From: Alphaproteobacteria bacterium
Lineage (GTDB): Bacteria; Pseudomonadota; Alphaproteobacteria; SP197
Direction of reading: 5' to 3'
NCBI GenBank assembly: GCA_965200495.1
Contig: CBDAUG010000001.1
Location: forward strand, 2,196,885-2,260,884
Length of the DNA: 64,000 nt
Of this stretch, positions 1,178 to 20,128 are shown in pieces (the first letter of the stretch is position 1; each line of letters starts with the position of its first letter). Both the position numbers and the translations under genes were made by a program. The notes under the pieces were generated by a model, which was not told where the DNA came from, made no database searches, and saw nothing but the letters and a program-made list of their open reading frames with translations.

Positions 1178-1876
1178 CTAGAGGGCCAGGGCTTCGAAGA
1201 CCTTGTCCCCGTCTTCGAGATCCTGCCGGGTCAGGCGGCGGGAGATTTGGCCCTTCGCCATGACCAGACATCGGGATGCTGTCCGGCGCGCCAGTTCGAT
1301 GTTCTGTTCCACCAGCAGGACGGTCAGACCAAGTTCACCGGTGAAGGTGTGAAGAAAGTCACCGATCTGGTGGACGATCGAGGGCTGAATGCCTTCCGAC
1401 GGCTCGTCCATGAGCAGCAGCATCGGATCGGCGCACAGGGCGCGCGCGAGGCAGAGAATCTGTTGTTGCCCGCCCGACAGCGTACCGGCAGATTGCTGCA
1501 GGCGGTCACCCAGAATGGGAAACATGTCGAGGATGTCGTCGGGGATTGTCCGCCGGCCGTCTGCCCGACTGCGCAGCCCGACGATGAGATTCTCCTCGAC
1601 TGTCAGTCGCCCGAAAATGCCCCGGCCCTGAGGGAGATAGGCCACGCGCGCCTTCGCCAGACGATGTGGCGCCCATCCGGTCACGTCGATGCCGTCGAGT
1701 CGCACGCTGCCCGAGGTCGGCTTGACGAGACCGACAAGGGCCTTGAGCAGGGTCGTCTTGCCGACGCCGTTGCGGCCAATGAGAACGAGCGTTTCGCCCC
1801 TTTCGAGGGTCAGCGAGATGTCGTGCAGGACAGGCAGAACACCAAAGCCCGCACCAAGATCCCGCACCTCAAGCAT
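1178..1876 (-). CDS. livF: Branched-chain amino acid ABC transporter ATP-binding protein LivF
   Basis: Walker A GRNGVGKTT, signature LSGGQQQ and Walker B LLLMDEP are present. Adjacent to livG. Confidence 0.9.
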   Translation of the reverse strand: MLEVRDLGAGFGVLPVLHDISLTLERGETLVLIGRNGVGKTTLLKALVGLVKPTSGSVRLDGIDVTGWAPHRLAKARVAYLPQGRGIFGRLTVEENLIVGLRSRADGRRTIPDDILDMFPILGDRLQQSAGTLSGGQQQILCLARALCADPMLLLMDEPSEGIQPSIVHQIGDFLHTFTGELGLTVLLVEQNIELARRTASRCLVMAKGQISRRLTRQDLEDGDKVFEALAL

Positions 1877-1877
1877 G

Positions 1878-2594
1878 TCAGGCCCGCCCCAGGTAGATGT
1901 CCCGTACGAGGGCGTCTTCCTCGATCTGTGAGAATGTGCCTTCGGCGATCACCCGTCCCTGGTGCATGACAATGGTGTGGCAACCAAGCGCGCGCACAAA
2001 GCTCATGTCATGTTCGATCGCCATGACGGCCGTGGTCTGCGCCAGCCTGCGCACGAGCGCAGCGGTCTCCAGGGTTTCGTCGAGAGTCATGCCGGCAGTC
2101 GGTTCATCGAGCAGCAGCAGCCTCGGTTCCGACATCAGGGCCATGCCGATCTCGAGCCATTGCTTGTGCCCGTGAGCGAGATTCCCGGCCACCTGATGGC
2201 GTATCGCTGTCTGGCCTGTAAGGTCGAGCATGGCTGTCAGCCGCTGCGCGTGTTCCGCCGCGGATCCTGGCCTGATGACAGCCGTTTCGAGATTCTGCGC
2301 AACCGTCAGGGTCTCGAAGACGCTTGGGATCTGGAACTTCCGGGCAATGCCCCGTCTGGCGAAGCCATGGAGCGGCAACCCGTGCAACGGGACACCCTCG
2401 AAGACGATGTCCCCGGTGTCTGGCCTGATGACACCCCCCAGGATGTTGAAGAGCGTGCTCTTTCCGGCGCCATTGGGTCCGATGATGCACTGGAGTTCGC
2501 CGGGCGCAATCGCAAGAGAGATGTTGTCGACGGCTGTCACGCCTCCGAAGCGCTTCGAGAGGTTGCTGCCGGCAAGAAGCGCCCCGGATGTCAT
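1878..2594 (-). CDS. livG: Branched-chain amino acid ABC transporter ATP-binding protein LivG
   Basis: Start moved to MTSGALLAGSNLSKRFGG. Has GPNGAGKST and LLLLDEP motifs. The start overlaps the livM stop by 4 nt. Confidence 0.9.
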   Translation of the reverse strand: MTSGALLAGSNLSKRFGGVTAVDNISLAIAPGELQCIIGPNGAGKSTLFNILGGVIRPDTGDIVFEGVPLHGLPLHGFARRGIARKFQIPSVFETLTVAQNLETAVIRPGSAAEHAQRLTAMLDLTGQTAIRHQVAGNLAHGHKQWLEIGMALMSEPRLLLLDEPTAGMTLDETLETAALVRRLAQTTAVMAIEHDMSFVRALGCHTIVMHQGRVIAEGTFSQIEEDALVRDIYLGRA

Positions 2595-3621
2595 GCCCGC
2601 CTTCCGCGCTCGAGAACCATGCGTAACGCGCCGAGGATTCCTTGCGGGAACACGAAGACGGCCAGAATGAACAATCCGCCCATGAACAGGGGCCATAGCT
2701 GGACGTCGATGCTGCTGATTTCCTGTTCCAGCCAGATCACCGCCATGGCGGCGCAGATCGGACCGATCAGGGTGCCGCGGCCGCCGATCGCAACCCAGAT
2801 GATGACCTGGGTTGAAAGAATGAGGCCGACAACATCCTTGGCGACGAATCCAACCGCCAAGGCATAAAGGGCTCCGCCGAGTGCAGCGATGGCTGCGGAA
2901 CCGACGAACACGGCAAGAAGGTGCCCGGACGTGTTGTGACCGAGTGCCTGGGCACGCTGTTCGTTGTCATCGATAGCCCTGAGGATTGATCCGTAACGGC
3001 CCCGGCAGATCATGGAGAGGGCGGCCGTGACAACGGTCACGACCGCCACCACAAACCAGTAGAGGCCCTCGGGCGGCAAGGGCGCCATGCCTCGCGGGGA
3101 TGGAAAGTGCAGCGGCGGTATGCCGAGAAGACCGGCATCGCCACCGGTGACGTCCGAAGACCGGCATCGCCACCGGTGACGTCCGACCAGCCGACGACGA
3201 CATGTTCGGAGATGACCGCCAGGGCCAGGGTCACGATGGTGAAGTAGGAGCCGCGAACACCGCCAAATATGAGGAAGTACCCGACGATCAGTGCGATGGC
3301 CATGGCAGCACATATGCCGGTTGCCAGGCCGAGCCAGGAGCCGACAGCGGGATCCAGCCCAAAGCGTGTCGAGATGATGGCTGCTCCGTAGGCGCCGGCA
3401 CCGAAGAATGTGGCATGACCAAAACTCAGAACGCCGGTCTTGCCCCACAGGAAGTCGAGAGCCAGCGCCAGCAAGGCGAAAAGCATGGCATCTCTCAGGA
3501 GTGCTGCGGCATAGGCGCCGACCATCAACGGAGCAAAACAGACGAGTATCAGCAGAAACCCCGACGCGGTGATCACGAGACCGGGTCCTATCCTGCGCCG
3601 GGCCGATGTCACGCAGTCCAT
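2591..3621 (-). pseudogene. livM: High-affinity branched-chain amino acid ABC permease LivM, disrupted by a frameshift from a 29-bp tandem duplication
   Basis: The N-terminal half (MDCVTSARRRIGPGLVITASGFLL…VVGWSDVTGGDAGL) and the C-terminal half (…SDVTGGDAGLLGIPPLHFPSPRGMAPLPPEGLYWFVVA…ILGALRMVLERGRRA) lie in different frames. Both halves encode 'TGGDAGL' flanking the duplication at 3129–3186. Confidence 0.75.
3129..3186. repeat. Exact 29-bp tandem duplication (AGACCGGCATCGCCACCGGTGACGTCCGA ×2) inside livM
   Basis: Positions 3129–3157 and 3158–3186 are identical. 29 nt is +2 mod 3, so it shifts the frame. Confidence 0.9.
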
Positions 3622-3623
3622 GC

Positions 3624-4472
3624 CTACACCTTCACCAGCCCGCTTGGCCGCAGGCGAACCAGCACGATGGCAAGCACCAGGACCAGCGCCTGCGAGAGCG
3701 TCGCCGGAATGGCGTAGGTGAAGAGTGTCTCTGCGCCTCCTACCAGAGCGCTGCCGGCGACCACACCCGGAACGCTTCCCGCACCCCCGACAATGACGAC
3801 GAAGAAGGACCGGGCGAGATAGTTGACACCCATCTGCGCAATGACGGCGGTGAGAGGCGCCAGCAGGACGCCCGCCACGGCGGCGAGTCCGGTTCCCAGG
3901 GAAAAGGCGATGGCATGGACACGACGCGTATCGATTCCGAGCGCCTCGGCCATCTGCGGATCCTGGATGGCGGTGCGCAGATCGAGGCCGAACCTCGTCC
4001 TGCGAATCACCAGGTGAGTGGCAACCATCGTGGCGATCGCCAGGGCGATGAGCACGATCCGGTAGGCGGGGTAGGCTGCGCCAAAGAGATCGACAGAGTC
4101 GGTGATCGGCGAGAACACCTTCTGGGGAGCGGCGCCGAACGTCAGCTGAAGGGTTTGCTGGATGATCAGCGACAGCCCCCAGGTTGCCATGATGGTCGCC
4201 AGGGGGCGGGCGTACAGGAAACGGATGATGGACTGTTCGACAAGGAGGCCGACGAGGGCGCCGACCATCCCTGCGACAACCAGGGCCAACCAGAAGTTGC
4301 CGCCGAGACCCTGGACGACGGCAAGACTGAAGGCGCCGATGGTGATGAAATCGCCATGGGAGAGATTGATGACGCCCATCAATCCGTAGATGATCGCCAG
4401 CCCGAGCCCGACCAACATCAGAATACTGACAAGTGTCAGCGCGTTCAGCACAATCGGAAGGATGACGTCCAT
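3624..4472 (-). CDS. livH: Branched-chain amino acid ABC transporter permease LivH
   Basis: Reads MDVILPIVLNALTLVSILMLVGLGLAIIYGLMGVINLSHGDF…, a polytopic LivH/BPD permease. Its stop abuts the livM start. Confidence 0.9.
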   Translation of the reverse strand: MDVILPIVLNALTLVSILMLVGLGLAIIYGLMGVINLSHGDFITIGAFSLAVVQGLGGNFWLALVVAGMVGALVGLLVEQSIIRFLYARPLATIMATWGLSLIIQQTLQLTFGAAPQKVFSPITDSVDLFGAAYPAYRIVLIALAIATMVATHLVIRRTRFGLDLRTAIQDPQMAEALGIDTRRVHAIAFSLGTGLAAVAGVLLAPLTAVIAQMGVNYLARSFFVVIVGGAGSVPGVVAGSALVGGAETLFTYAIPATLSQALVLVLAIVLVRLRPSGLVKV

Positions 4473-4579: not shown

Positions 4580-4601
4580 CACTTCATAGTTTGATGAAGT
4601 G
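4580..4601. promoter_or_regulatory. Inverted repeat CACTTCAT-agtttg-ATGAAGTG in the liv/LysR divergent intergenic region; candidate LysR-type binding site
   Basis: Perfect 8-bp arms with a 6-bp spacer. Ends about 10 nt before the LysR ATG at 4611. Contains a TTCA…TGAA core. Confidence 0.35.
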
Positions 4602-4610
4602 ACAACGACG

Positions 4611-5558
4611 ATGCTCGGATCCGTTGCCGATATCGACCTGCGTCTCCTGCGGGTTTTCCTCACGGTCGTTCGCTGTGGCGGCTTCGCTGCCGCCCAGTCC
4701 GCACTCAATGTCTCCCAGTCACAGATCAGCATGCAGATGAAGCAGCTTGAGGAACGGATCGGAACGCGCCTTTGCCATCGGGGGCGTGGCGGTTTCTGGC
4801 TCACCCGGGAAGGTCGTGATGTTCACGATGCCGCGAGGGCCCTGTTCCGCTCCATCGACGAGTTCCGTTCGTCCGTCGCCTCGACCTGCGGCCGACTTGG
4901 CGGCCGGCTGCATGTCAGCGTCATCGACAATTCGGTTTTCAACGAGGGATGCAGGCTTCATGCCGCGATTCATGCGTTCAAGGAGAAGAACCCTGTCTCG
5001 GAAGTCGGACTCGATGTCGTCGCACCCGACGAAGTCGAACAGATGGTGCTGTCGGGCGCTTGCGACCTTGGCATCGGTTTCTTCCCGGCCCTTCGTCAGG
5101 GGCTGGAATACAAGCCGCTCTTCACGTCGCGTATGGATCTCTATTGTGGCCGGGGCAATCCTCTCTTCGCCAAGGCGCCCGATAGCCTGCAACCGGATGA
5201 GGTCTTCGCATCGGAACATGCCGCGCGGGGCTATGTTGCCACGGCCCAGTTGCCGACGTTCGAACGCAAGTTCTTCGTGGGCGCCTCATCGTCCACGGTC
5301 GAGGGACTTGTCACTCTCGTGCTGTCCGGCCGCTACACCGCCTATCTGCCTCGACACTATGCCAGACACTGGGTGGATGCCGACCTGATCCGTCCTGTGC
5401 TGCCCGGGCTGATCGGCTACACGTCTCTCTATGAGATGGCGATCCGCAAGGAAAGCAGACGCAACAATCTACTCAATCTTTTCATTAAGTTGCTTGTTGA
5501 TCTTCATCCACAAATCGAAGAAAAGGACTTTCGCATCGGCACCGACGTCCCGGACTGA
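4611..5558 (+). CDS. LysR-family transcriptional regulator
   Basis: N-terminal HTH (DLRLLRVFLTVVRCGGFAAAQSALNVSQSQISMQMKQLE) plus a LysR substrate-binding domain. Divergent from the liv operon. The ORF-track start at 4599 is a GTG; the ATG at 4611 is preferred. Confidence 0.85.
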   Translation: MLGSVADIDLRLLRVFLTVVRCGGFAAAQSALNVSQSQISMQMKQLEERIGTRLCHRGRGGFWLTREGRDVHDAARALFRSIDEFRSSVASTCGRLGGRLHVSVIDNSVFNEGCRLHAAIHAFKEKNPVSEVGLDVVAPDEVEQMVLSGACDLGIGFFPALRQGLEYKPLFTSRMDLYCGRGNPLFAKAPDSLQPDEVFASEHAARGYVATAQLPTFERKFFVGASSSTVEGLVTLVLSGRYTAYLPRHYARHWVDADLIRPVLPGLIGYTSLYEMAIRKESRRNNLLNLFIKLLVDLHPQIEEKDFRIGTDVPD

Positions 5559-5742
5559 TGCCTGCCAGAGCATTGCGCGGCTGCTGCAGCGGGTGAGGCG
5601 TGGCGTGCACCACAATACCGTTCGCGGGTCCGTCCCGACGGCTTCGAGGCCCTCGCGGAGCGCCGGCAGGGCCTTGTCGCGTGGCGCGACACGACCGACC
5701 GTGCCGGCCGCAGGCTCCGCGACAATCGGGGGCCTGCCTGGC

Positions 5743-7665
5743 TCAGGGCAGGTTGAGTTCGGCCAGGTCCGGAACCGGACCGTCCCATCGGGGATCGCCG
5801 GACCAGGTTGCCCAGGAGGCATGGATCACGCGGTCGCGCTCACGCCAGTCGTCGAGCACGAAACTGATCCAGAATTCCATCATTTCCTCGTCCGATCCCC
5901 AGCCCCACGTCACGGTCTTCGGCGGCAGCGTCGGGTTGTAGGGATTGGCAGACGTGTTGTCGAACCGCAGCCAGCCGTCGATCGTGCTGCCGGCTGGAAG
6001 ACGGACCGGTTCCCGGAAGAAATAGATGTTCTGCCATCTGAGATCCCATTCCTCGACATGGATCAGCGGTATCTGCGTGCCGTCCGGGAGGGTCGCGATC
6101 GCCTTGGCCTCGGCGCCGAGGTAGTGCATGTGCGGCATGATGTCGACAAGGGTCAGGGACGCCGGAATCTCCATCCGGACGTGGCGCCAGTAGGTGTCCG
6201 ATTCGGGAGGAATCGCAAGCTGCTGGGTGCCGATCACGAGACCGTCAACCCAGTGGGCGACGGCATCGTCGGCAAACGTGAAGCCGATTCGACTGCGGTC
6301 CTGCGTGGCCTTGCCATTGAGGTGATAGTGGATCTCGAACACGATGTCGCCGGCGCCGGCCGGGAGCCACAGGGCATGATCGTCGGGCAGGACATAGGGA
6401 TCGACGCCGGGTGTCCAGCCTGCGATACCCCATGTCTGCGCTTCGCCGCCGTAGTCGAAGAAGCCGCCCGTTCCGAAGACGGAAAAGCCGGGTCCATCGT
6501 CCCTGGCGTCGGCGCGGCGTGCCCGGCCCGAGTAGTCGACAAAGATGTTGGCGTGGTGAACGACACGGCTGTCGCCGGGCTGGAATTCGACGGCGCTGAT
6601 GGCGCGCTCCTCGAGGAGTTCGAAGGGGATGACGAAGTACCGGTAGATGTCAGGACCGGTCGCGGGAATGGCGAAGGCCTCTTCCATGGCGAGAACAAGG
6701 TCAGGTTCGCCGACGCGCCACGCGGGGTCCGGCCACACCGTCTTCGGCAGTGCCTCCGCGTCCTCACCGAGCGGCGCGCCGGCTTCGGCCCATGCCGCGA
6801 GGAGGGCGACTTGCCTCTCGGAAAGGTGCCGCTCGTCACGGAAGGCGCCGAATCCCCTGGCGGCGCGCCACGGCGGCATGATCTGCTCTCTGGTCACGAA
6901 GGCCAGCATGTGGGCCCGGCGCCTGGCATCGACATACGTATCGAGAGGGAAGGGGGCGACGCTGCCGTTCCTGTGGCACTCAGTGCAGTTGGCCGCGAGC
7001 AGGGGAGCGATATCCCGGTTATAGGTCACGGACTCGGGGAGGCGGCCCGCATCCCAGCCCTCGAACACGCAGCCGACGGGCTTTGTCGAGACGGGCCGCG
7101 CATCGTCATCAGTTCCCACCGCCACGATGGCGTCCCTGAGGTCGTGGCGGGTGATCCGGTTGCGCAGGACGCCGATCGTTTCGAAACGATCGTCGATACG
7201 GCCGCGATACATCACGTCATCTCCGGTATCGATGACAAAGGCCTCCGGGGTGACAGCGGGATTGAGGCGCAGTGCGAGATCACCGGAGGGATCGAAGATG
7301 ACGGGAAAGTCGAAACCGTGGTCGACCACGAAGTTCCGGGCTTCGCCCACCGTGAGGTAGGGTCCCGACATGACCCCGTAGAACGAGGCGCCGTGGGTTT
7401 CGGCAAACATGGCAAGGTCGTTGAGTTCGGGAGCGTAGCGACTGGAGACCGGGCAGAAGGCGTTCATGAAGAGGAGGACAACCGGACGGACACCGGTATC
7501 GGTCCCTATGCGATGGACATGGCCGTCAAGATCGACCACGCGTGTGCCGTAGACATGCGCCTGCCGGTTGCTGTCGGCGGTGGTGGCCCATGCCATGCCG
7601 AAGAGCCAGACTAGGGTGGCAAGGAGAAGGACATGCGTCACGGTGGCCTTGTGGCGTCGGTACAT
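5743..7665 (-). CDS. Membrane-anchored multidomain redox protein: TlpA/redoxin-like thioredoxin fold (CPVS), Planctomycete-type cytochrome c (CTECH), and PHM/DBH-like type-II copper monooxygenase domain
   Basis: N-terminal TM helix (HVLLLATLVWLFG). Redoxin motif FCPVSSRY. Heme-binding NCTECHRNGSVAPFPLDTY (PSCyt1-like). CuH-site VVHHANIF…IHYHLNG. CuM-site MPHMHYLG…EEMMEFW. Start trimmed to M38 of the listed ORF, because the upstream part overlaps the divergent promoter. Confidence 0.8.
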   Translation of the reverse strand: MYRRHKATVTHVLLLATLVWLFGMAWATTADSNRQAHVYGTRVVDLDGHVHRIGTDTGVRPVVLLFMNAFCPVSSRYAPELNDLAMFAETHGASFYGVMSGPYLTVGEARNFVVDHGFDFPVIFDPSGDLALRLNPAVTPEAFVIDTGDDVMYRGRIDDRFETIGVLRNRITRHDLRDAIVAVGTDDDARPVSTKPVGCVFEGWDAGRLPESVTYNRDIAPLLAANCTECHRNGSVAPFPLDTYVDARRRAHMLAFVTREQIMPPWRAARGFGAFRDERHLSERQVALLAAWAEAGAPLGEDAEALPKTVWPDPAWRVGEPDLVLAMEEAFAIPATGPDIYRYFVIPFELLEERAISAVEFQPGDSRVVHHANIFVDYSGRARRADARDDGPGFSVFGTGGFFDYGGEAQTWGIAGWTPGVDPYVLPDDHALWLPAGAGDIVFEIHYHLNGKATQDRSRIGFTFADDAVAHWVDGLVIGTQQLAIPPESDTYWRHVRMEIPASLTLVDIMPHMHYLGAEAKAIATLPDGTQIPLIHVEEWDLRWQNIYFFREPVRLPAGSTIDGWLRFDNTSANPYNPTLPPKTVTWGWGSDEEMMEFWISFVLDDWRERDRVIHASWATWSGDPRWDGPVPDLAELNLP

Positions 7666-7720
7666 CAAACCAGCCCTCTTCCGGTGCTCGTGGATGACAA
7701 GTGTGGCGCGTCGTTGTAGA

Positions 7721-7736
7721 TTGTCAATAATGACAA
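7721..7736. promoter_or_regulatory. Palindrome TTGTCA-ataa-TGACAA; candidate TetR operator in the divergent promoter region
   Basis: 6-bp perfect inverted arms. Lies between the Cu-monooxygenase gene start (7665, minus) and the TetR gene start (7770, plus). Confidence 0.4.
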
Positions 7737-7769
7737 ACAACATGTCCCGCAAGACATGGGCAAACCGGG

Positions 7770-8366
7770 ATGGCATCCATGGCCCGTCCTGACCTTAGCG
7801 CTGAACGGTCGCAACAGATCCTCGATGCGTTCTCGCGGTGCGTGGCGCGTCTGGGCTTCGATGCCACGTCCCTCGAGGAGGTAGCCGGTGAAGCGGGAGT
7901 CCGCCGTTCGATCATCCGCCACTACATCGGCAATCGCGACGACCTGGTTGCGGCGTTCCTGGATCACCTGGGCATTCGCCTGCAGCGGCAGAACGATGAC
8001 ATGCGCGCCTGGTTCAGCGCCAACCCCGGGGTCGGCGACCTGCCGCACTACCTCTTCGCGGATGTTTCCAACGACGAACTGCCGGTGATCGAGTCGGTGT
8101 ATGCGGCCGGCCGCCGCAACCCGGCGATTGCTTGCCGCCTTGAGGGCTGGCAGCAGGGCTTCGCCGATGCGCTTGAGGATGTGTTGCGCACCTCTCTGCC
8201 CGATGCGGATCAGGAAGACATCGCAGCCGTTTCCCACGGTCTCGCCGCCATCTACAACAACCATCAGTCGATGCTGACCCTTGGAGCACCGCCTCGCTAC
8301 AGCGCGATGGCGCTTGCAGCCGCTGAAATGCTCATCGCCGCACTTGTCACGCGAGCGCGGCCATGA
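7770..8366 (+). CDS. TetR/AcrR-family transcriptional regulator
   Basis: N-terminal HTH (SAERSQQILDAFSRCVARLGFDATSLEEVAGEAGVRRSIIRHYIGNRDDL) and a helical C-terminal domain. Confidence 0.85.
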   Translation: MASMARPDLSAERSQQILDAFSRCVARLGFDATSLEEVAGEAGVRRSIIRHYIGNRDDLVAAFLDHLGIRLQRQNDDMRAWFSANPGVGDLPHYLFADVSNDELPVIESVYAAGRRNPAIACRLEGWQQGFADALEDVLRTSLPDADQEDIAAVSHGLAAIYNNHQSMLTLGAPPRYSAMALAAAEMLIAALVTRARP

Positions 8367-8866
8367 CGCGGCCAACGATGTGTGGCAGCGCTGCCCTGTG
8401 CTGTGACAACCTTGCCGCCCATCGGGACGACCGCCAGGCAGACGTTCTCGACTGGGGGTGCGGGGATGGCGAGGTCGGTGCGCTGCTTTGCGCTCTTGGA
8501 TACCGGACCGTTGATGGTATGGATACCGCGTTCGGCATGCTGGCACGCGCGCGCGAGCGCGGCGTTTATCGTCGGCTCTTCAGCGCCGCATCGCCGGATG
8601 ATCTGCCGGATCGCAGCTACGACGCGGTGGTCGCATCACGCAGCCTCGCAGGTGAGGATGCGTCCCCGGACGTGCTCCACGGTTTCGTCAGGCTGCTGAG
8701 GGCGGGAGGAGTGATGTCCCTTGCGGTGGCGCCCCGAGGCGGGTTGGCGGACGCTTGCCGCAGGATGTGCAGGGCAGGAACCCTGTTGAAGATGGAAGCA
8801 ACCTGGGACAGGCTTCCGGCAACGGGACAGCCGCAGGTGCGGTTTCTGGTTCTTGGACGATTCTAG
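8363..8866 (+). CDS. Small class-I SAM-dependent methyltransferase
   Basis: Motif I VLDWGCGDGEVG. 167 aa. Start overlaps the TetR stop (ATGA). Confidence 0.65.
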   Translation: MTRPTMCGSAALCCDNLAAHRDDRQADVLDWGCGDGEVGALLCALGYRTVDGMDTAFGMLARARERGVYRRLFSAASPDDLPDRSYDAVVASRSLAGEDASPDVLHGFVRLLRAGGVMSLAVAPRGGLADACRRMCRAGTLLKMEATWDRLPATGQPQVRFLVLGRF

Positions 8867-8881
8867 CCGGGGTTATGCAAC

Positions 8882-9847
8882 ATGCAGATCAACATGCGGG
8901 GGCCGGCCGGTCGCTACAATGCGCCCTATGGCGGAATCGCGACATTCCTGCGCCAGGACTACTGCGATGACATTGCCACTCTTGACGCTGACTATGCCAT
9001 TCTCGGCACGCCGACCGACGAGGGATCCCCCTTCATGGGCGGATCGCGTTTTGCCCCGCGTTCCATCCGCGAACATTCGCTGAGGTTCGGTTCGGACGGG
9101 TACTACGACATCCTCACAGACAAGTCTTACCTGGTCGAGGAAACGGCAAACCGGCGTATCGTCGATGTCGGGGACAGCGACGTTCTGGAGACCAATGTCG
9201 CAGGGACATTCGACAACATCACTGCCGATGTCTCGGGCATCCTCGAACGCGGCGCCATGCCGGTCATCATTGGTGGCGATCACTCGGTGACATATCCGGT
9301 GGTGAGGGCGTTCCATGAACCCATGCATGTCATGCACTTTGACGCCCACATGGACTATCGACCCTTCGTTCACGACCTGAGATTCACCAACGGTCATGCC
9401 TTCCGTCACATCAAGCCCATGTCCCATGTGCTGTCGCTGACACAGATCGGCATCCGCAGCCTGCGGAGCGCCCTTCAGGAGTTCATCGATGCGCGCGCCG
9501 AAGGCAGCCACATCGTCACCATGGATGAGATCCGCAGACTCGGGCCTGAGGACTTCGTGCACCAGACCTTCCCGCGAGGCGAAAAGATGTACGTGTCGAT
9601 TGATGTCGATGTCCTTGACATGTCACTTGTGCCGGGCTGTATCTCCGCGGAACCCAACGGCATGCTCTATGCCGAACTGCGTGACATCCTGCGCGTCACG
9701 GCGCGACACATGGACGTCATCGGTTTCGACTTCGTCGAAGTCAATCCCAGGCTCGATGTCGGCACCGGCGTGACGTCCTACCTCGGCGCCCACACCATGG
9801 TCGAATTCCTCGGCGCCATTGCCGAGGCGAAGGCCGCCAAGAGATAG
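8882..9847 (+). CDS. Ureohydrolase, arginase/agmatinase family (agmatinase or guanidino-acid hydrolase-like)
   Basis: Mn-binding motifs IIGGDHSVTYP, HFDAHMDY and SIDVDVLD. 321 aa. Confidence 0.85.
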   Translation: MQINMRGPAGRYNAPYGGIATFLRQDYCDDIATLDADYAILGTPTDEGSPFMGGSRFAPRSIREHSLRFGSDGYYDILTDKSYLVEETANRRIVDVGDSDVLETNVAGTFDNITADVSGILERGAMPVIIGGDHSVTYPVVRAFHEPMHVMHFDAHMDYRPFVHDLRFTNGHAFRHIKPMSHVLSLTQIGIRSLRSALQEFIDARAEGSHIVTMDEIRRLGPEDFVHQTFPRGEKMYVSIDVDVLDMSLVPGCISAEPNGMLYAELRDILRVTARHMDVIGFDFVEVNPRLDVGTGVTSYLGAHTMVEFLGAIAEAKAAKR

Positions 9848-12618: not shown

Positions 12619-12718
12619 TGGGTGATGCTTTCGGGGTCCGCAAACCAGGTGGCGTGGACTCACATGAAACCCGGGGCCAGCGGGCTGCGGGCAGGTGACA
12701 ATCTGGAGGATCACATCC

Positions 12719-13828
12719 ATGGATATCAGGGATACCATCAAGCGACTTGAAAACAGGGAGTTGAGCCGTCGGGAGCTCGGTCAGGCGATGGCCGCGGTCG
12801 GGCTGGTGTCGACGGTGATGCCGTTGACGGCGGCCCATGCCGAGGATCAGGCGGTCTACTTTACGTGGTCCGGTTATGACGTGCCGGAGCTCTGGCCCGG
12901 CTATGTCGAAAAGCACGGTGTGGAGCCGGATTGTCCGGTCTTCGGTGACGCCGAGGAGGCCTTCACCAAGGTGAGGGCCGGCTTCGTCGTGGATGTCATG
13001 CATCCATGCAGCGGCAATGTGCCACGCTGGCGGCGCGCGGGCGTTCTCCAGCCCATCGACACATCGAGGCTTTCCAACTGGAAGGATGTGGTTCCGGCGC
13101 TCTCCAACATCCAGGATGCCCGGCACGATGGACAGCAGTGGTTCGCTCCTTTCGAGTGGGGGCAGACATCGATCACCTACCGCACGGACATCGTCGACTG
13201 GCAGGGCGAAGAGGAGTCCTGGGGGCTGCTCTGGGACGAGCGCTATGCCGGCAGGCTTTCGATCATCGATGCCGCCGAGGATGCCTGGTGGTGTGCTGCC
13301 ATCTACGCCGGGGTCGACACCGACAATCTGACGGAAGAGGATCTGACAAGGGTTCTCGATGTCTTGAGACAGCAGCGTGATCTCCTGAGGTTTCGCCAGA
13401 GCGACATGACGACGGTGGAACAGGCTCTCGCCTCCGGGGAACTCGTCGCAGCGATGACCTGGAACGATTCGCCCTTGAGACTCATCGGACAAGGCATTCC
13501 GGTGAAGTTCGCCAATGTCAGGGAGGGCGCGCTGACCTGGGTCTGCGGCATGGCGCTGACCAGCAATGCGCCCCACTACGACAAGGCCCATGATCTCATC
13601 GACGCCATGCTGGCGCCTGATGTCGGGGAATATGTGATCATGGAGTTCGGTTATGGTCACTCGAGCGCCGCGGCGTTCGACCGTGTCAGCGATGACGACC
13701 TGGCCGCCCGCGGGCTTTCGAGGGATCCATCCGACATCCTGGACAAGGGCGTCTTCCTGATGGCGCAGTCCGAGGAGATCGAGACCAGGATCAACCGTGA
13801 CTGGGGTGAGATGATCGCCGGTTTCTGA
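12719..13828 (+). CDS. ABC transporter periplasmic substrate-binding protein, PotD/PotF (polyamine/amine) family
   Basis: Tat signal SRRELGQAMAAVGLVSTVMPLTAAHA followed by a PBP2 fold (…WSGYDVPELWPGYV…ITYRTD…). No cognate permease or ATPase is adjacent. Confidence 0.85.
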   Translation: MDIRDTIKRLENRELSRRELGQAMAAVGLVSTVMPLTAAHAEDQAVYFTWSGYDVPELWPGYVEKHGVEPDCPVFGDAEEAFTKVRAGFVVDVMHPCSGNVPRWRRAGVLQPIDTSRLSNWKDVVPALSNIQDARHDGQQWFAPFEWGQTSITYRTDIVDWQGEEESWGLLWDERYAGRLSIIDAAEDAWWCAAIYAGVDTDNLTEEDLTRVLDVLRQQRDLLRFRQSDMTTVEQALASGELVAAMTWNDSPLRLIGQGIPVKFANVREGALTWVCGMALTSNAPHYDKAHDLIDAMLAPDVGEYVIMEFGYGHSSAAAFDRVSDDDLAARGLSRDPSDILDKGVFLMAQSEEIETRINRDWGEMIAGF

Positions 13829-13920: not shown

Positions 13921-14595
13921 ATGCCCCATGGTGCACCCCCGGCTGCGAGTGCGTTGCCAGCGAACCGCCGCCTTGCCGTTCGCCAGGCACGGCGACAGCA
14001 GCTGATCGACGCCACCATCGAATCGATCGCCCGGCGGGGATTCTCGGGCACCACCCTGGAAACCGTCACCAGGGGCGCCCGGCTGTCGCACGGCGTGGTC
14101 AACTTTCATTTCCGCACCAAGGAAGATCTCTACGTCGAGACTCTGGGTCATCTGGCGCGGGAACATTATGAGCTGTGGCGCAGCGCCATGCTGCGTGCCG
14201 GCCCGGACCCGGCGAAACAACTGCAGGCCATCCTGGAGGCGGATTTCGACCGCCGGGTCTGCTCGAAAAAGAAACTTGCGGTCTGGTTCGCCTTCTGGGG
14301 CCAGGCGAAATACCGGCCCGCCTACCTCGAGATCCACCACCGCTTCGATGACGAGAGGTATGTCGAGATCTGCCGGCTGTGCCGGGAACTGGTGTCAAGC
14401 GGCCCCTACGAGGGCGCCGACGCGGACGGGATTGCCCGCAGCATCGAGGCCCTGATCGACGGTCTGTGGCTCAACCTGCTCATGTATCCGCGGGACATCC
14501 GTCGCCAGACCGCGAGAACGGATTGCCTGGCATATCTTGCCACGGCCTTTCCCCATCATTTTGAACGGCCGGCGGCCGGTGGCTGCAAGGCCTGA
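13921..14595 (+). CDS. TetR-family transcriptional regulator (BetI-like)
   Basis: HTH RQQLIDATIESIARRGFSGTTLETVTRGARLSHGVVNFHFRTKEDL. Immediately upstream of the dehydrogenase gene. Confidence 0.85.
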   Translation: MPHGAPPAASALPANRRLAVRQARRQQLIDATIESIARRGFSGTTLETVTRGARLSHGVVNFHFRTKEDLYVETLGHLAREHYELWRSAMLRAGPDPAKQLQAILEADFDRRVCSKKKLAVWFAFWGQAKYRPAYLEIHHRFDDERYVEICRLCRELVSSGPYEGADADGIARSIEALIDGLWLNLLMYPRDIRRQTARTDCLAYLATAFPHHFERPAAGGCKA

Positions 14596-14599
14596 TGCG

Positions 14600-16681
14600 A
14601 TGGCAAGGGATCCGCGTCACGACATCCTGTTCGAGCCGGTGCCCATCGGGCCGTTGATCGCCCGCAACCGGTTCTACCAGGTGCCGCATTGCACAGGCAG
14701 TGGCTGGCAGAGCCCGCACATCCTTGCCGGGCTGCGCGCCATGAAAGCCGAAGGCGGCTGGGCCGTGGTCAACACGGAGTACTGTTCACCCCATCCTTCT
14801 GTTGACGATACGCCCTATCCCATGGCGTCGCTCTGGGATGATCGCGACATCCGGGCGCACGCCCTGATGACCGACCGGGTTCACGCCCATGGTTCGCTTG
14901 CCGGCGTGGAACTGGTTCTGGGTGGCGCAAGGATTGCCAATCACCTGACCCGCCAGGTGCCGCTCGGGGTGGTCAGCATGCCGCTCGCCACAGGAGAGCC
15001 CTTCCAGACGCGGGCCATGGACCATGACGACATCCGCGAGATCAGGCGCTGGCACCGCAATGCCGCGCTGCGCGCCAGGCAGGCAGGCTTCGACATTGTC
15101 TACGTCTATGCCACCCATGACTATCTGCTGTCGCAGTTTCTCTCGCCGGTGCTCAACACGCGTTCGGACGAGTATGGCGGCTCGCTTGCCAACCGGGTGC
15201 GCCTGGTACGCGAACTCATCGAGGATACGAAGGATGCCGTTGGCGGGACCATGGCTGTCGCGGTGAGATTCTCTGCCGAGACCAACGGTGGTGGCGGCGA
15301 TGACGGCACGCCGGTTCCCGGCGAAACCGAAGACATCCTGGGCCTGCTGGGGGATCTGCCAGACCTCTGGGACATCAATGTCAGCGACTATTCCCTCGAA
15401 ATGGGACTGTCGCGCTTTGTTGCTGAAGGGGCCCTCGAATCCTACGTTTCAACCATCCGTTCCCTGACGACGAAGCCCATCGTGACTGTCGGACGTTTCA
15501 CCTCGCCGGATACCATGGCGGCCTGGGTGAGGAAGGGGCTGGTCGACTTCATCGGCGCGGCGCGGCCGTCCATCGCCGATCCCTTCCTGCCCAGGAAGAT
15601 CGAAGAGGGACGCATCGAGGACATCCGCGAATGCATCGGCTGCAACATCTGCTACATGGGCGATGCCCGCGGCGCGCCCATCCGCTGCACCCAGAATCCC
15701 ACCATGAGCGAGGAGTGGCGCCGCGGCTGGCATCCGGAGGTCATCGCCAGCCGGCATTCCGCGTCGCGTGTTCTCGTCATCGGGGCGGGGCCGGCCGGGC
15801 TCGAAGCTGCCCTGTCCCTGGGAAGAAGGGGCTATGACGTCGTTCTTGCCGAGGCCGAGCGCGCACTCGGTGGACGGGTGACGAGGGAGGCCAGGCTTCC
15901 CGGACTCGCCGAATGGGCACGTGTGCGCGATTATCGGGTGACCCAGTTGAACGGGCTTGCCAACGTGGAGATCTATCCTGCGAGCAGGCTGGGTCCCGGA
16001 GATGTCCTCGATGTGGCGGCCGACCATGTCGCTGTGGCGACAGGGGCGCACTGGAGAGCCGATGGTTTCGGTGTCAGCAATCGCGCAGGCATTGAATCCC
16101 TCGGTCCCTGCGAGAGCATCTTCACGCCCGACGACATCATGGCAGGCCGGTTTCCTGGGGGCCGTGTCATCGTCTACGACGATGACCACTACTACATGGG
16201 TACAGTCATGGCCGAGGCATTGCGCGGCCACGGCCTCGAGACCACGCTTGTGACACCCGAAGATGTTGTTTCAGCCTGGGGCGGGCTGACCCTGGACCGC
16301 TGGCGGGCCCGCAGACGGCTGATGGAGACCGGTGTCGGCATTGTCGTTGCCCATGAGCTGGTTTCCTTCGATGGCCGTCGGGCCCGCCTGGCCTGCAGCG
16401 CCGGGGGCGGGGAACGGGATATCGATGCGGACGCGATCGTTCTCGTGACGTCGCGCGCGCCTGATGATGCCCTCTATCAGGCGGTTCGCCGCAGCATGGA
16501 AACAGGGGACAAGGGCGCGCCGACGACGCTGCAGCGGATCGGCGACTGTGATGCGCCGGCTATCATCGCTGCGGCGGTCTACGCCGGACACCGTTACGCC
16601 CGCGAACTCGGCGCCGACGTCGATGCCGACAATCCGCTCAGGCATGACCGGGTCGACGTGGAGGCGAGCCATGACAACTGA
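14600..16681 (+). CDS. Trimethylamine/dimethylamine/histamine dehydrogenase-family iron-sulfur flavoprotein (OYE-like FMN domain + [4Fe-4S] + ADP-binding domain)
   Basis: N-terminal OYE/TIM-barrel region (FYQVPHCTG, SLAGVELVLGGARIANHL). Cluster motif CIGCNICY-x11-C. C-terminal GxGxxG (VLVIGAGPAGLEAAL). About 693 aa. Confidence 0.85.
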   Translation: MARDPRHDILFEPVPIGPLIARNRFYQVPHCTGSGWQSPHILAGLRAMKAEGGWAVVNTEYCSPHPSVDDTPYPMASLWDDRDIRAHALMTDRVHAHGSLAGVELVLGGARIANHLTRQVPLGVVSMPLATGEPFQTRAMDHDDIREIRRWHRNAALRARQAGFDIVYVYATHDYLLSQFLSPVLNTRSDEYGGSLANRVRLVRELIEDTKDAVGGTMAVAVRFSAETNGGGGDDGTPVPGETEDILGLLGDLPDLWDINVSDYSLEMGLSRFVAEGALESYVSTIRSLTTKPIVTVGRFTSPDTMAAWVRKGLVDFIGAARPSIADPFLPRKIEEGRIEDIRECIGCNICYMGDARGAPIRCTQNPTMSEEWRRGWHPEVIASRHSASRVLVIGAGPAGLEAALSLGRRGYDVVLAEAERALGGRVTREARLPGLAEWARVRDYRVTQLNGLANVEIYPASRLGPGDVLDVAADHVAVATGAHWRADGFGVSNRAGIESLGPCESIFTPDDIMAGRFPGGRVIVYDDDHYYMGTVMAEALRGHGLETTLVTPEDVVSAWGGLTLDRWRARRRLMETGVGIVVAHELVSFDGRRARLACSAGGGERDIDADAIVLVTSRAPDDALYQAVRRSMETGDKGAPTTLQRIGDCDAPAIIAAAVYAGHRYARELGADVDADNPLRHDRVDVEASHDN

Positions 16682-18790: not shown

Positions 18791-20128
18791 CTATGAGAGA
18801 AGGGTGGCGACCTCCCGGGCGACGGCCCGACCGTTGAGCCAGGCGCCGCCGGCGAGCTGGTACCACGGCGCGGCGGTGGCCTCGCCGGCAAAGAAGATCC
18901 TGTCGGCGACGGGCCGGGCAAGCCCGGCTCGCGCGTCATGATGGCCCGGAAGCGCCGCGGCATAGGCGCCGCGCGTCCAGGGATTGCTGTCCCAGTCTGT
19001 CGCCAGTCCCCTGACGACGTGCTTGTAGACGTCATTGCCGAAAATCGCAGCAAGCTCGCCCAGGGCGAAGTCGATCGCGGCATCGGATCCTGCCGCCGCC
19101 AGTTCGCGTCCGAAACGCCCTCCCGTGAAGCCGATCATGAGATTGAAACCGAAGGGAAAGGTGAGGAAATAGCAGGCCCGTGCCGGCAGCAGGTTCTCCA
19201 CGTGGTAGGTCAGCCAGTTGTTGTCACCCAGGCCGAACCGCTCGCCGTCGAACTCAAGGGCGATTTTCATCAGAAGTCCCATCGGCAAGCGGTCGATGGC
19301 TTCCTGCTTCCACAATGGAAGGGCGGGAGAAAAGGAGATGTCACCGGAGGCCAGCACACCTGTGGAAACGGTGACGATGCAGGCCCGCGCCCTGACGGTG
19401 CCCGCAGGCGTTGCCAGCGCCACGCCGTCACCGCTCCAGTCGATCGCGGTGACCGGAGTCTCAAGCGTGACCGGCAGGCCATATCCGTCGCGGGCGACAA
19501 GCGTGCCGAACCCTTCGCGAACCCTGTAGTAGGCGCCGATGTCGCCGTAGTTCCAGTTGTCAAGGGTGGACAGCTCGTCGAAATCGACAGCGAAATCCAT
19601 GGCTCCCATCCACGTCTGGGACACACCGGAAAACGACATGTCCGGTGGAACAACCGTCGATGCGGCAACATCGAGACCATCGCGCCCTGCCTTGTCGAGA
19701 GCGCCGTTGATGGCGTCCCAGGCACGGTCGTACTCCCCCCGTTCCTGGCCACTCGCCTTGCGGCCGCCGACGAAGAGCGATTCTCCGGCGCCACTGTGAT
19801 CGAGCAGCGTCAAGCCCCACGCGCGCGCCATGGCGATGTAGGGAAGGTCTGCCGGGCCCGTGATCCAGGAACATCCGCGGTCGAAGGGGACACCGAACGT
19901 ATCGCTGTCCGTCCAGGCCCGTCCGCCGATTCGTCCCGCAGCCTCGAGGACGACGACCGACAGTCCCTCCTGCTGCAGGGTGCGGGCCGCGGCGAGACCG
20001 GCCGCGCCGGCTCCCACCACGACGACATCCGGATTGCCGGGAAGACCCAGAGCGCCCGAAGGCAACGCCATCGTGGCTCCCAGACCGGCCAGAAACGACC
20101 GGCGGGAGAATGACTGCGCATGAGTCAT
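18791..20128 (-). CDS. FAD-dependent amine oxidase (flavin monoamine/polyamine oxidase family), Tat-exported
   Basis: Tat signal SRRSFLAGLGATMALP. Dinucleotide fold VVVVGAGAAGLAAARTL…VVVLEAAGRIGGR. C-terminal FFAGEAT. Confidence 0.85.
   Translation of the reverse strand: MTHAQSFSRRSFLAGLGATMALPSGALGLPGNPDVVVVGAGAAGLAAARTLQQEGLSVVVLEAAGRIGGRAWTDSDTFGVPFDRGCSWITGPADLPYIAMARAWGLTLLDHSGAGESLFVGGRKASGQERGEYDRAWDAINGALDKAGRDGLDVAASTVVPPDMSFSGVSQTWMGAMDFAVDFDELSTLDNWNYGDIGAYYRVREGFGTLVARDGYGLPVTLETPVTAIDWSGDGVALATPAGTVRARACIVTVSTGVLASGDISFSPALPLWKQEAIDRLPMGLLMKIALEFDGERFGLGDNNWLTYHVENLLPARACYFLTFPFGFNLMIGFTGGRFGRELAAAGSDAAIDFALGELAAIFGNDVYKHVVRGLATDWDSNPWTRGAYAAALPGHHDARAGLARPVADRIFFAGEATAAPWYQLAGGAWLNGRAVAREVATLLS

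Follow-up and report, generated by a model that had tools for sequence, protein, structure and literature searches.

The non-coupled binuclear copper monooxygenases known from textbooks are PHM, DBH and TBM, and animals use oxygenases of the PHM/DBH kind to make amidated peptides and noradrenaline. How an electron crosses the ~11 Å from CuH to CuM, and how CuH is fed with reductant, is still debated. Here we describe a bacterial gene for a putative relative of these enzymes, located on the reverse strand of a stretch of 64,000 nucleotides from an Alphaproteobacteria bacterium (assembly GCA_965200495.1, contig CBDAUG010000001.1; hereafter the window). The encoded protein, hereafter the enzyme, combines a thioredoxin-like, a cytochrome c and a PHM/DBH-like dicopper domain, and its gene is transcribed divergently from a TetR-family repressor gene (Table 1). 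On the basis of sequence and structural models we assign a probability of about 0.6 to the reading that the enzyme is a non-coupled dicopper monooxygenase of the PHM/DBH type that is periplasmic, repressed by TetR and fed by heme c.

The AlphaFold2 (AF2) model of the full-length enzyme has a predicted local distance difference test score (pLDDT) of 83 and a predicted TM-score (pTM) of 0.76. When this model was compared with the PDB by Foldseek, the top match was human DBH (4zel, E 3e-13). PHM was matched in over 30 entries, 3mll, 1phm and 1sdw among them, with E 1e-12 to 1e-9. The superposition on PHM covers about 300 aligned columns and both subdomains, with a TM-score of 0.55-0.67 normalised to PHM. 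A family profile of the domain searched against the PDB retrieved PHM chains only (E 5.6e-5), and the printed profile alignment, from which PHM residue numbers are taken, places H370-H371 and H446 on the CuH histidines and H512 and H514 on the CuM histidines. This mapping of HH, H and HxH agrees, together with the DBH match, with the original prediction, made from the letters of the DNA, of a PHM/DBH-like fold with both copper sites. The same alignment pairs Q545, which is conserved in the family, with PHM Q272, and E444, an invariant Glu in the family, with Q170. M595, in a D-E-E-M that resembles the DEM of the PHM motif SSDEMC, is the candidate counterpart of M314 and lies within the superposed region; by offset only, N316 and Y318 would correspond to E597 and W599. 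Pfam searches of 22 relatives identified Cu2_monooxygen in six (best 2e-4) and Cu2_monoox_C in eight (best 2e-5), and precomputed PF03712 matches exist for some minimal relatives. On alignment and model together the enzyme is taken to be a bacterial relative of the PHM/DBH kind, not PHM or DBH itself.

Conservation of the ligands was scored in 154 aligned stretches from 150 representatives with 35-57% identity. All six copper ligands and the four heme-site residues are kept in at least 148 of the 154, the exceptions being nearly all gaps, and the spacings from the heme motif to HH, HxH and EM are tightly bounded (139 representatives). By this measure the metal ligands are evidently under strong purifying selection. 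The earlier statement that all catalytic signatures are intact thus holds for the metal ligands, which are intact, and fails for the redoxin motif, which is degenerate.

The heme site is as regular as the copper sites: the spacing from CxxCH to MPP is exactly 36 residues in all 139 representatives, and CTECH (227-231), already noted in the original prediction, and M263-P-P are invariant across the representatives. In the AF2 model an N-terminal helix ends at CxxCH and is followed by the Met loop and a C-terminal helix. Cytochrome_CBB3 is matched by 21 of the 22 family members (best E 4.6e-5), and the sequence evidence for a class I cytochrome c domain can be called good. Assignment to the PSCyt families was considered and rejected, since no Pfam PSCyt model matched the enzyme (E<=1) or its 22 relatives (E<=0.1); the domain is rather a predicted cbb3/c6-like class I cytochrome c. 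The likeness to a Planctomycete-type cytochrome c that had been proposed is thereby reduced to a resemblance at motif level, to hydrazine synthase.

A query consisting of the cytochrome and PHM-like parts had 14,275 matches with E<=1e-3 and 2,658 with E<=1e-30 among 50%-identity representatives. From the top 150 of these 139 were scored: 81 have no N-terminal domain and 57 have one. C-terminal tails of more than 150 aa are found in about half of the representatives, and TPR arrays in all ten tails examined. The cytochrome domain is present in redoxin-bearing and redoxin-less forms alike. Because the redoxin-less forms keep cytochrome and metal ligands, the conserved unit is the cytochrome c plus dicopper core with the redoxin as accessory; N-terminal redoxin and C-terminal TPR are optional. 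Two proteins are tandem duplications within one polypeptide: in P0139 (1251 aa) the whole set of redoxin, cytochrome c and PHM-like domain occurs twice, and in P0121 (1064 aa) the pair of cytochrome c and PHM-like domain does.

The full architecture was found in more than 520 full-length relatives with 47-87% identity to the enzyme, named, where a name is given, 'redoxin domain-containing protein'. Relatives occur in 292 species-level genomes, including Alpha- and Gammaproteobacteria, Planctomycetota (among them Ca. Uabimicrobium), Acidobacteriota, Gemmatimonadota, Latescibacterota, Binatia, Verrucomicrobiales and Flavobacteriales. For the minimal forms of ~430 aa from Fimbriimonadia NCBI gives the label 'ascorbate-dependent monooxygenase' and JGI that of 'mono/diheme cytochrome c family protein', and we counted the NCBI label as independent support for a monooxygenase. 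The architecture is therefore common and in part already annotated automatically. Since identities are about 50% even between phyla, the gene may have spread horizontally among bacteria that share a habitat. Many of the carriers (L007-L086) are metagenome-assembled genomes (MAGs), and the record names (RHO1/RHO3_bin, SB0661_bin, Co_bin, isolates named by UUID) and phyla (Latescibacterota, Binatia, Gemmatimonadota, Acidobacteriota) may point to symbiont sets of sponges or other marine invertebrates, for which a search gave no confirmation.

The mechanical open reading frame (ORF) of the gene runs from 5743 to 7776, and the ATG at 7665 is its M38. The start at 7665 matches the N-termini of the homologues in the alignment and is preceded, 8 nt 5', by the Shine-Dalgarno sequence AGAGGG, which is kept in the closest relatives. 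A start at 7776 was rejected: the frame would then run through the conserved operator and past the TetR start (7770), and homologues and ribosome-binding site favour 7665. With a GC content of 0.67/0.47/0.80 over the codon positions (third position, GC3, 0.80) the frame has the composition expected of a genuine gene at a genomic GC content of 64%; the long antisense ORF, whose codon-position pattern is atypical (GC3 0.67), was dismissed as a GC-rich artefact. The translation shows C71 (CPVS), C199, CTECH 227-231, MPPW 263-266, HH 370-371, H446, HMH 512-514 and M595, and contains only four cysteines (C71, C199, C227, C230). ORF, motifs, Pfam, Foldseek and profile agree on one polypeptide with a thioredoxin fold, a heme c site and a PHM/DBH-type dicopper domain, just as first proposed.

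Residues 1-27 hold the only hydrophobic segment of the enzyme and are followed by a disordered linker (pLDDT<50 at residues 22-33 in the AF2 model), and the N-termini of homologues end in analogous A-x-A motifs. A cleavable Sec signal peptide is thus more likely than a membrane anchor, which makes the tethering to the membrane suggested earlier doubtful. Covalent heme c is matured in the periplasm. Because of the signal-like N-terminus and the covalent heme c a periplasmic location is predicted.

Redoxin (E 1.3e-8, 35.2 bits against a cut-off of 26.6) and AhpC-TSA (E 8.9e-9, 35.8 against 26) are the only Pfam domains above threshold in the enzyme. Profile matches in the PDB are 2ywi (8e-14) and 2cvb (2e-13), and Foldseek retrieved 2ywi, 3u5r and 2cvb at TM 0.71-0.77. 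These three nearest solved structures are uncharacterised thioredoxin-like proteins. The C-N-H-C-P motif of 2ywi/2cvb is aligned to N68-A-F-C71-P72, so that the nucleophilic first cysteine is the one lost. Among 186 family members position 68 is D/G/S/N/A (Ser in 20) and never Cys; C71 is kept in 180 of 182 and C199 in 175 of 176. The 'S' of CPVS at position 74, upon which a CxxS monothiol motif had been read, is Ser in 89, Ala in 82 and Cys in one of 182 members. We rejected that motif, since the 2ywi/2cvb alignment gives N-A-F-C as the true register and S74 alternates with Ala about equally. A dithiol relay is unlikely, therefore, as the first CxxC cysteine is lost and only C71 and C199 are conserved, and the thiol electron-relay role of the original prediction falls with it. 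No CxxC redox pair, the hallmark looked for in ResA/CcmG/TlpA-type proteins, was found in either register in the 186 members, nor was a peroxiredoxin P-x3-T/S-x2-C site, there being no Pro at -7 and D/G/S/N/A at -3. The domain therefore belongs neither with the CxxC oxidoreductases nor with the peroxiredoxins of the T-x-x-C type.

Conservation of the regulator was studied in 87 loci (1.23 Mb), 85 of which are informative for TetR adjacency. In about 59 of the 85, from more than eight phyla, the gene next to the enzyme belongs to one and the same TetR subfamily (family hidden Markov model, E 1e-53 to 1e-82), and a member also adjoins a redoxin-less variant (L088). The regulator gene is co-directional and upstream in 31 loci, divergent in 22-24 and downstream in two. 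The subfamily has no invariant Cys in the ligand-binding half of TetR, which is poorly conserved.

In the window the operator match is unique, with 0.12 expected by chance. Allowing up to two mismatches, 34 of the 36 matches in the surveyed loci lie in this promoter region, and the operator is conserved in Alphaproteobacteria, Planctomycetota and Verrucomicrobiales, often occurring twice per intergenic region in divergent loci. It contains a perfect -35 TTGACA directed towards the enzyme gene, and directly next to it lies a promoter-like site directed towards TetR. The additional half-site TGACAA is found in L007-L015 and L023 too, with its position unchanged. With TetR_N above threshold and the palindrome at 7720-7737 conserved, the divergent TetR gene and palindromic operator reported at the outset are confirmed, and phylogenetic footprinting extends the finding to other loci. 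The significance of the second palindrome, at 7741-7758, is doubtful, because it is not conserved in relatives. Co-directional loci (L025-L078), in which TetR and enzyme genes make up an operon, show another palindrome instead, TGAGACA-N4-TGTCTCA, ~10-130 bp upstream of TetR; repressor and operator appear to have co-diverged with gene order.

The thioredoxin-like and PHM/DBH-like folds, the ligand conservation, the fixed spacing between heme domain and copper core and the linkage of TetR and operator are shown by these analyses. The route by which the enzyme would work as a monooxygenase includes metal loading, electron path and oxygenase chemistry that we infer from the sequence. The protein would be exported by Sec, after which heme would be attached to C227/C230 in the periplasm. 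This heme, with His231 and Met263 as putative axial ligands, would accept electrons one at a time from cytochromes c in the periplasm and pass them to CuH (H370, H371, H446), thus replacing the ascorbate of PHM or the cytochrome b561/ascorbate supply of DBH; ascorbate is not known to be supplied to the periplasm. CuM (H512, H514, M595) would bind O2 and hydroxylate a C-H bond of the substrate. The thioredoxin-like domain would be accessory, probably serving in substrate or partner docking or in single-cysteine chemistry. TetR would hold the gene off and release the operator upon binding the substrate or a related ligand. TetR control and the occasional efflux neighbours favour a small-molecule substrate, and the TPR and thioredoxin-like accessories a peptide or protein.

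Several observations weigh against this reading. Pfam matches of the enzyme itself fall short: Cytochrome_CBB3 on residues 219-268 has E 0.02, below threshold, Cu2_monoox_C reaches 11.3 bits against a cut-off of 23 (E 0.24), and PF01082 is not matched. The isolated, heme-free model of the cytochrome domain (pLDDT 72) gave no significant structural match in Foldseek, with c6, OmcF and c-554 on top at only E 0.6-3. For the pairing of M595 with M314, a 41-column profile found nothing in the PDB. The carboxylate anchor of PHM, R240, corresponds to M510, which varies in the family (Y/T/S/A/L), and, the domain being without Cys, the disulfides of PHM are absent; both chemistry and substrate could therefore differ from those of PHM. 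The neighbours in the window point to no substrate. Finally, no characterised bacterial member was found in the literature searched, outside of which lie most subscription journals. The same finding upholds the claim that a characterised bacterial counterpart is lacking, which the commonness of the architecture does not weaken; a 2020 review lists PHM and DBM under eukaryotes only in its table (PMC7435645).

The same enzyme class could instead act on a periplasmic or secreted peptide or protein, with the thioredoxin-like and TPR modules binding the macromolecule. Thioredoxin folds commonly hold protein substrates, the TPR tails described above are frequent, and the L003 homologue adjoins LanM with four NHLP-type precursor genes. 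We nevertheless regard such a substrate as unlikely: the peptide-carboxylate anchor R240 is not conserved, the sole conserved neighbour is TetR, a family that usually senses small ligands, and there is no conserved precursor-peptide gene nearby, the neighbourhood with ribosomally synthesised and post-translationally modified peptides (RiPPs) having been observed in a single genome lineage.

Two further explanations dispense with hydroxylation and are weaker than the monooxygenase reading. One is a cytochrome-c-dependent oxidase or a detoxifier of peroxide or oxidant, in which O2, H2O2 or another oxidant is reduced at copper with electrons from the heme and Cys71 handles peroxide. Enzymes that hydroxylate a substrate are marked by the full set of CuH and CuM ligands, Met included, and most of the superfamily has no redoxin, whereas the copper and heme sites are invariant. 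C71 does align with the second CxxC cysteine, presumably the position of the peroxidatic Cys of peroxiredoxins, and AhpC-TSA is above threshold; the Thr of the peroxiredoxin T-x-x-C is replaced by D/N/G/S. The proximity of MsrA to the enzyme locus in two loci and of RND efflux genes downstream in seven would suit detoxification, but a systematic check found MsrA adjacency in one of 87 loci. On balance we consider this explanation improbable, more so than a macromolecular substrate. The other is that of a plain redoxin, with thiol-disulfide oxidoreductase activity as in ResA/CcmG/TlpA and with a C-terminal extension that is inert, as the database name 'redoxin domain-containing protein' and the sole above-threshold Pfam match would have it. 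The NCBIfam matches to StoA, ResA and DsbE that could be added are weak, scoring 12-18 bits where the cut-offs lie at 123-210. The heme and dicopper module, with its invariant ligands, accounts for three quarters of the protein, the redoxin is the dispensable part of the family and the CxxC pair is absent in both registers; this last explanation is strongly disfavoured, with only a very slight chance of being correct.

Table 1. Features of the enzyme locus and its surroundings (positions within the window; residues refer to the enzyme).
Feature	Position	Strand	Basis or remark
Complete enzyme gene	5743..7665	-	640 codons + stop; signal peptide, thioredoxin-like, cytochrome c, PHM/DBH-like dicopper
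Probable Sec signal peptide, residues 1-27, MYRRHKATVTHVLLLATLVWLFGMAWA	7585..7665	-	Basic n-region, hydrophobic core, AWA|TT cleavage motif
Thioredoxin-fold domain (Redoxin/AhpC-TSA; 2ywi/2cvb/3u5r-like), residues 36-206, degenerate active site	7048..7560	-	Pfam, PDB profile, Foldseek
C71, single conserved active-site Cys	7453..7455	-	Aligns with second Cys of CNHC in 2ywi/2cvb
C199, invariant G-C motif ending the thioredoxin-like domain	7069..7071	-	Common to 2ywi/2cvb/3u5r (IGC)
Predicted class I c-type cytochrome domain, residues 212-300	6766..7032	-	Cytochrome_CBB3 match, helix order
Heme c attachment C227-T-E-C230-H231, proximal His	6973..6987	-	Kept in 148-149/154 stretches, rest gaps
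M263-P-P-W, candidate distal Met heme ligand	6868..6879	-	M263 in 150/154, rest gaps
PHM/DBH-like catalytic core, residues 320-625, two beta-sandwich subdomains	5791..6708	-	Foldseek, PDB profile search
H370-H371, predicted CuH ligands	6553..6558	-	vvHH on tvHH = PHM H107/H108; 150 and 152/154
H446, predicted third CuH ligand	6328..6330	-	EiHY on QvHY = PHM H172; 152/154
H512-M-H514, predicted CuM ligands	6124..6132	-	PHMHylGk on vHtHhlGk = PHM H242/H244; 153 and 152/154
M595 in D-E-E-M, candidate CuM Met	5881..5883	-	149/154, rest gaps; within PHM-superposed region
Antisense 727-aa ORF spanning the enzyme gene	5431..7614	+	Codon-position GC 0.75/0.50/0.67
Extra half-site TGACAA (ATTGTCATC on gene strand)	7695..7700		Between operator and enzyme start
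Predicted TetR operator ATTGTCAATAATGACAAA	7720..7737		18-bp inverted repeat; consensus ATTGTCA-N4-TGACAAT
Second palindrome CATGTC-N6-GACATG	7741..7758		Just upstream of TetR start
Cognate TetR-family repressor, divergent	7770..8366	+	TetR_N E 1.9e-6, 28 bits vs 24
S-adenosylmethionine (SAM) methyltransferase	8363..8866	+	Overlaps TetR stop by 4 bp
Arginase-family hydrolase	8882..9847	+	Window neighbour
Polyamine-type solute-binding protein	12695..13828	+	Window neighbour
OYE/TMADH-like flavin mononucleotide (FMN) + flavin adenine dinucleotide (FAD) oxidoreductase	14537..16681	+	Window neighbour
Flavin amine oxidase	18791..20128	-	Window neighbour
Branched-chain amino-acid ATP-binding cassette (ABC) transporter	1178..4472	-	Window neighbour
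LysR-family regulator, convergent with enzyme gene	4599..5558	+	Pfam

All-against-all clustering of the ORFs of the 87 loci identified no conserved neighbour besides TetR; RND efflux genes occur downstream in seven loci, and TGT is confined to the alphaproteobacterial clade nearest to the enzyme. The surroundings in the window are rich in genes of amine and amino-acid metabolism, none of which is a conserved neighbour of the enzyme elsewhere. LysR-like ORFs lie downstream in several of the closest relatives (for instance the cluster of L009 8991-9908) and not in the wider family. At L003 (627-7014; P0023, a Rhodospirillales MAG) a gene for LanM, a class II lanthipeptide synthetase (DUF4135 + LANC_like), is found directly upstream of the TetR-enzyme pair, the four precursor genes (NHLP-type, NHase_alpha-like) lie beside it and RND efflux genes follow downstream. 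The presence of these lanthipeptide genes could be a coincidence or a link to peptide substrates. MsrA (methionine sulfoxide reductase A, PMSR) adjoins the enzyme or TetR gene at two loci distant from each other, L005 (7137-7661) and L088 (4412-5095).

A wider proposal, which we put forward tentatively and at somewhat less than even odds, is that the enzyme is a ligand-inducible, TetR-controlled member of a very large bacterial PHM/DBH-type clade, with thousands of clusters in at least ten phyla, in which the cytochrome would wire the copper site directly to the respiratory pool in place of ascorbate and swappable thioredoxin-like or TPR modules would choose the target. If true, non-coupled dicopper monooxygenases would for the first time be known from prokaryotes, the peptide-amidating and catecholamine enzymes of animals might have evolved from this clade, and its members in host-associated bacteria could act on amines or peptides of the hosts. 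A correct assignment would lead to the re-annotation of thousands of genes, given that the 2,658 clusters are mostly named 'redoxin domain-containing' or 'hypothetical protein'. A soluble bacterial homologue that lacks disulfides and glycosylation and has a covalent heme as spectroscopically visible donor would be tractable for the timing of electron transfer. Since TetR and operator are tightly paired, the ligand that releases the repressor would be a candidate for the substrate.

The regulatory part of the locus resembles the TetR-tetO divergent regulons, with the same TetR_N helix-turn-helix, a divergent or upstream gene and a palindromic operator overlapping the promoter, and differs from these in having two operator types in different clades. 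The thioredoxin-like domain shares its fold, the YRGxxDD motif and the C-terminal I-G-C-x-x-x-W with 2YWI (Geobacillus), 2CVB/2YWO (Thermus) and 3U5R (Sinorhizobium SMc02350); ResA, CcmG and TlpA are more distant thioredoxin-like kin. Whereas 2YWI/2CVB/3U5R carry CxxC (C-N-H-C-P), the enzyme family keeps the second Cys only, and a third of its members have Ser at the cis-Pro position of the thioredoxin fold. With class I cytochromes, such as the CcoP-type cbb3 domains and c6/c553, the heme domain has in common the CxxCH after an N-terminal helix, the later Met-Pro loop and the C-terminal helix, but it is never free-standing and always fused upstream of the dicopper core. It also shares the motif RDIxPIL..C..CH with the heme domain of hydrazine synthase alpha (5C2V).

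PHM (1PHM, 1OPM, 1SDW, 3MLL) has the same two-subdomain beta-sandwich, with three His at CuH, two His and, on the enzyme side as a candidate, Met at CuM and the conserved Q272 equivalent, at an identity of only 13-15%. The enzyme differs from it by lacking disulfides, by an invariant Glu for Q170 and a variable residue for R240, and by being bacterial, predicted periplasmic and fused to a heme c that presumably replaces ascorbate. DBH (4ZEL) and tyramine beta-monooxygenase are multidomain proteins as well, with a DOMON accessory N-terminal to the dicopper core, so that the idea of an attached domain for handling electrons or ligands is analogous. The accessory domains themselves are unrelated, DOMON in DBH against a thioredoxin fold and a class I cytochrome c in the enzyme, which has no dimerisation domain and which probably receives its electrons from cytochrome c instead of ascorbate.

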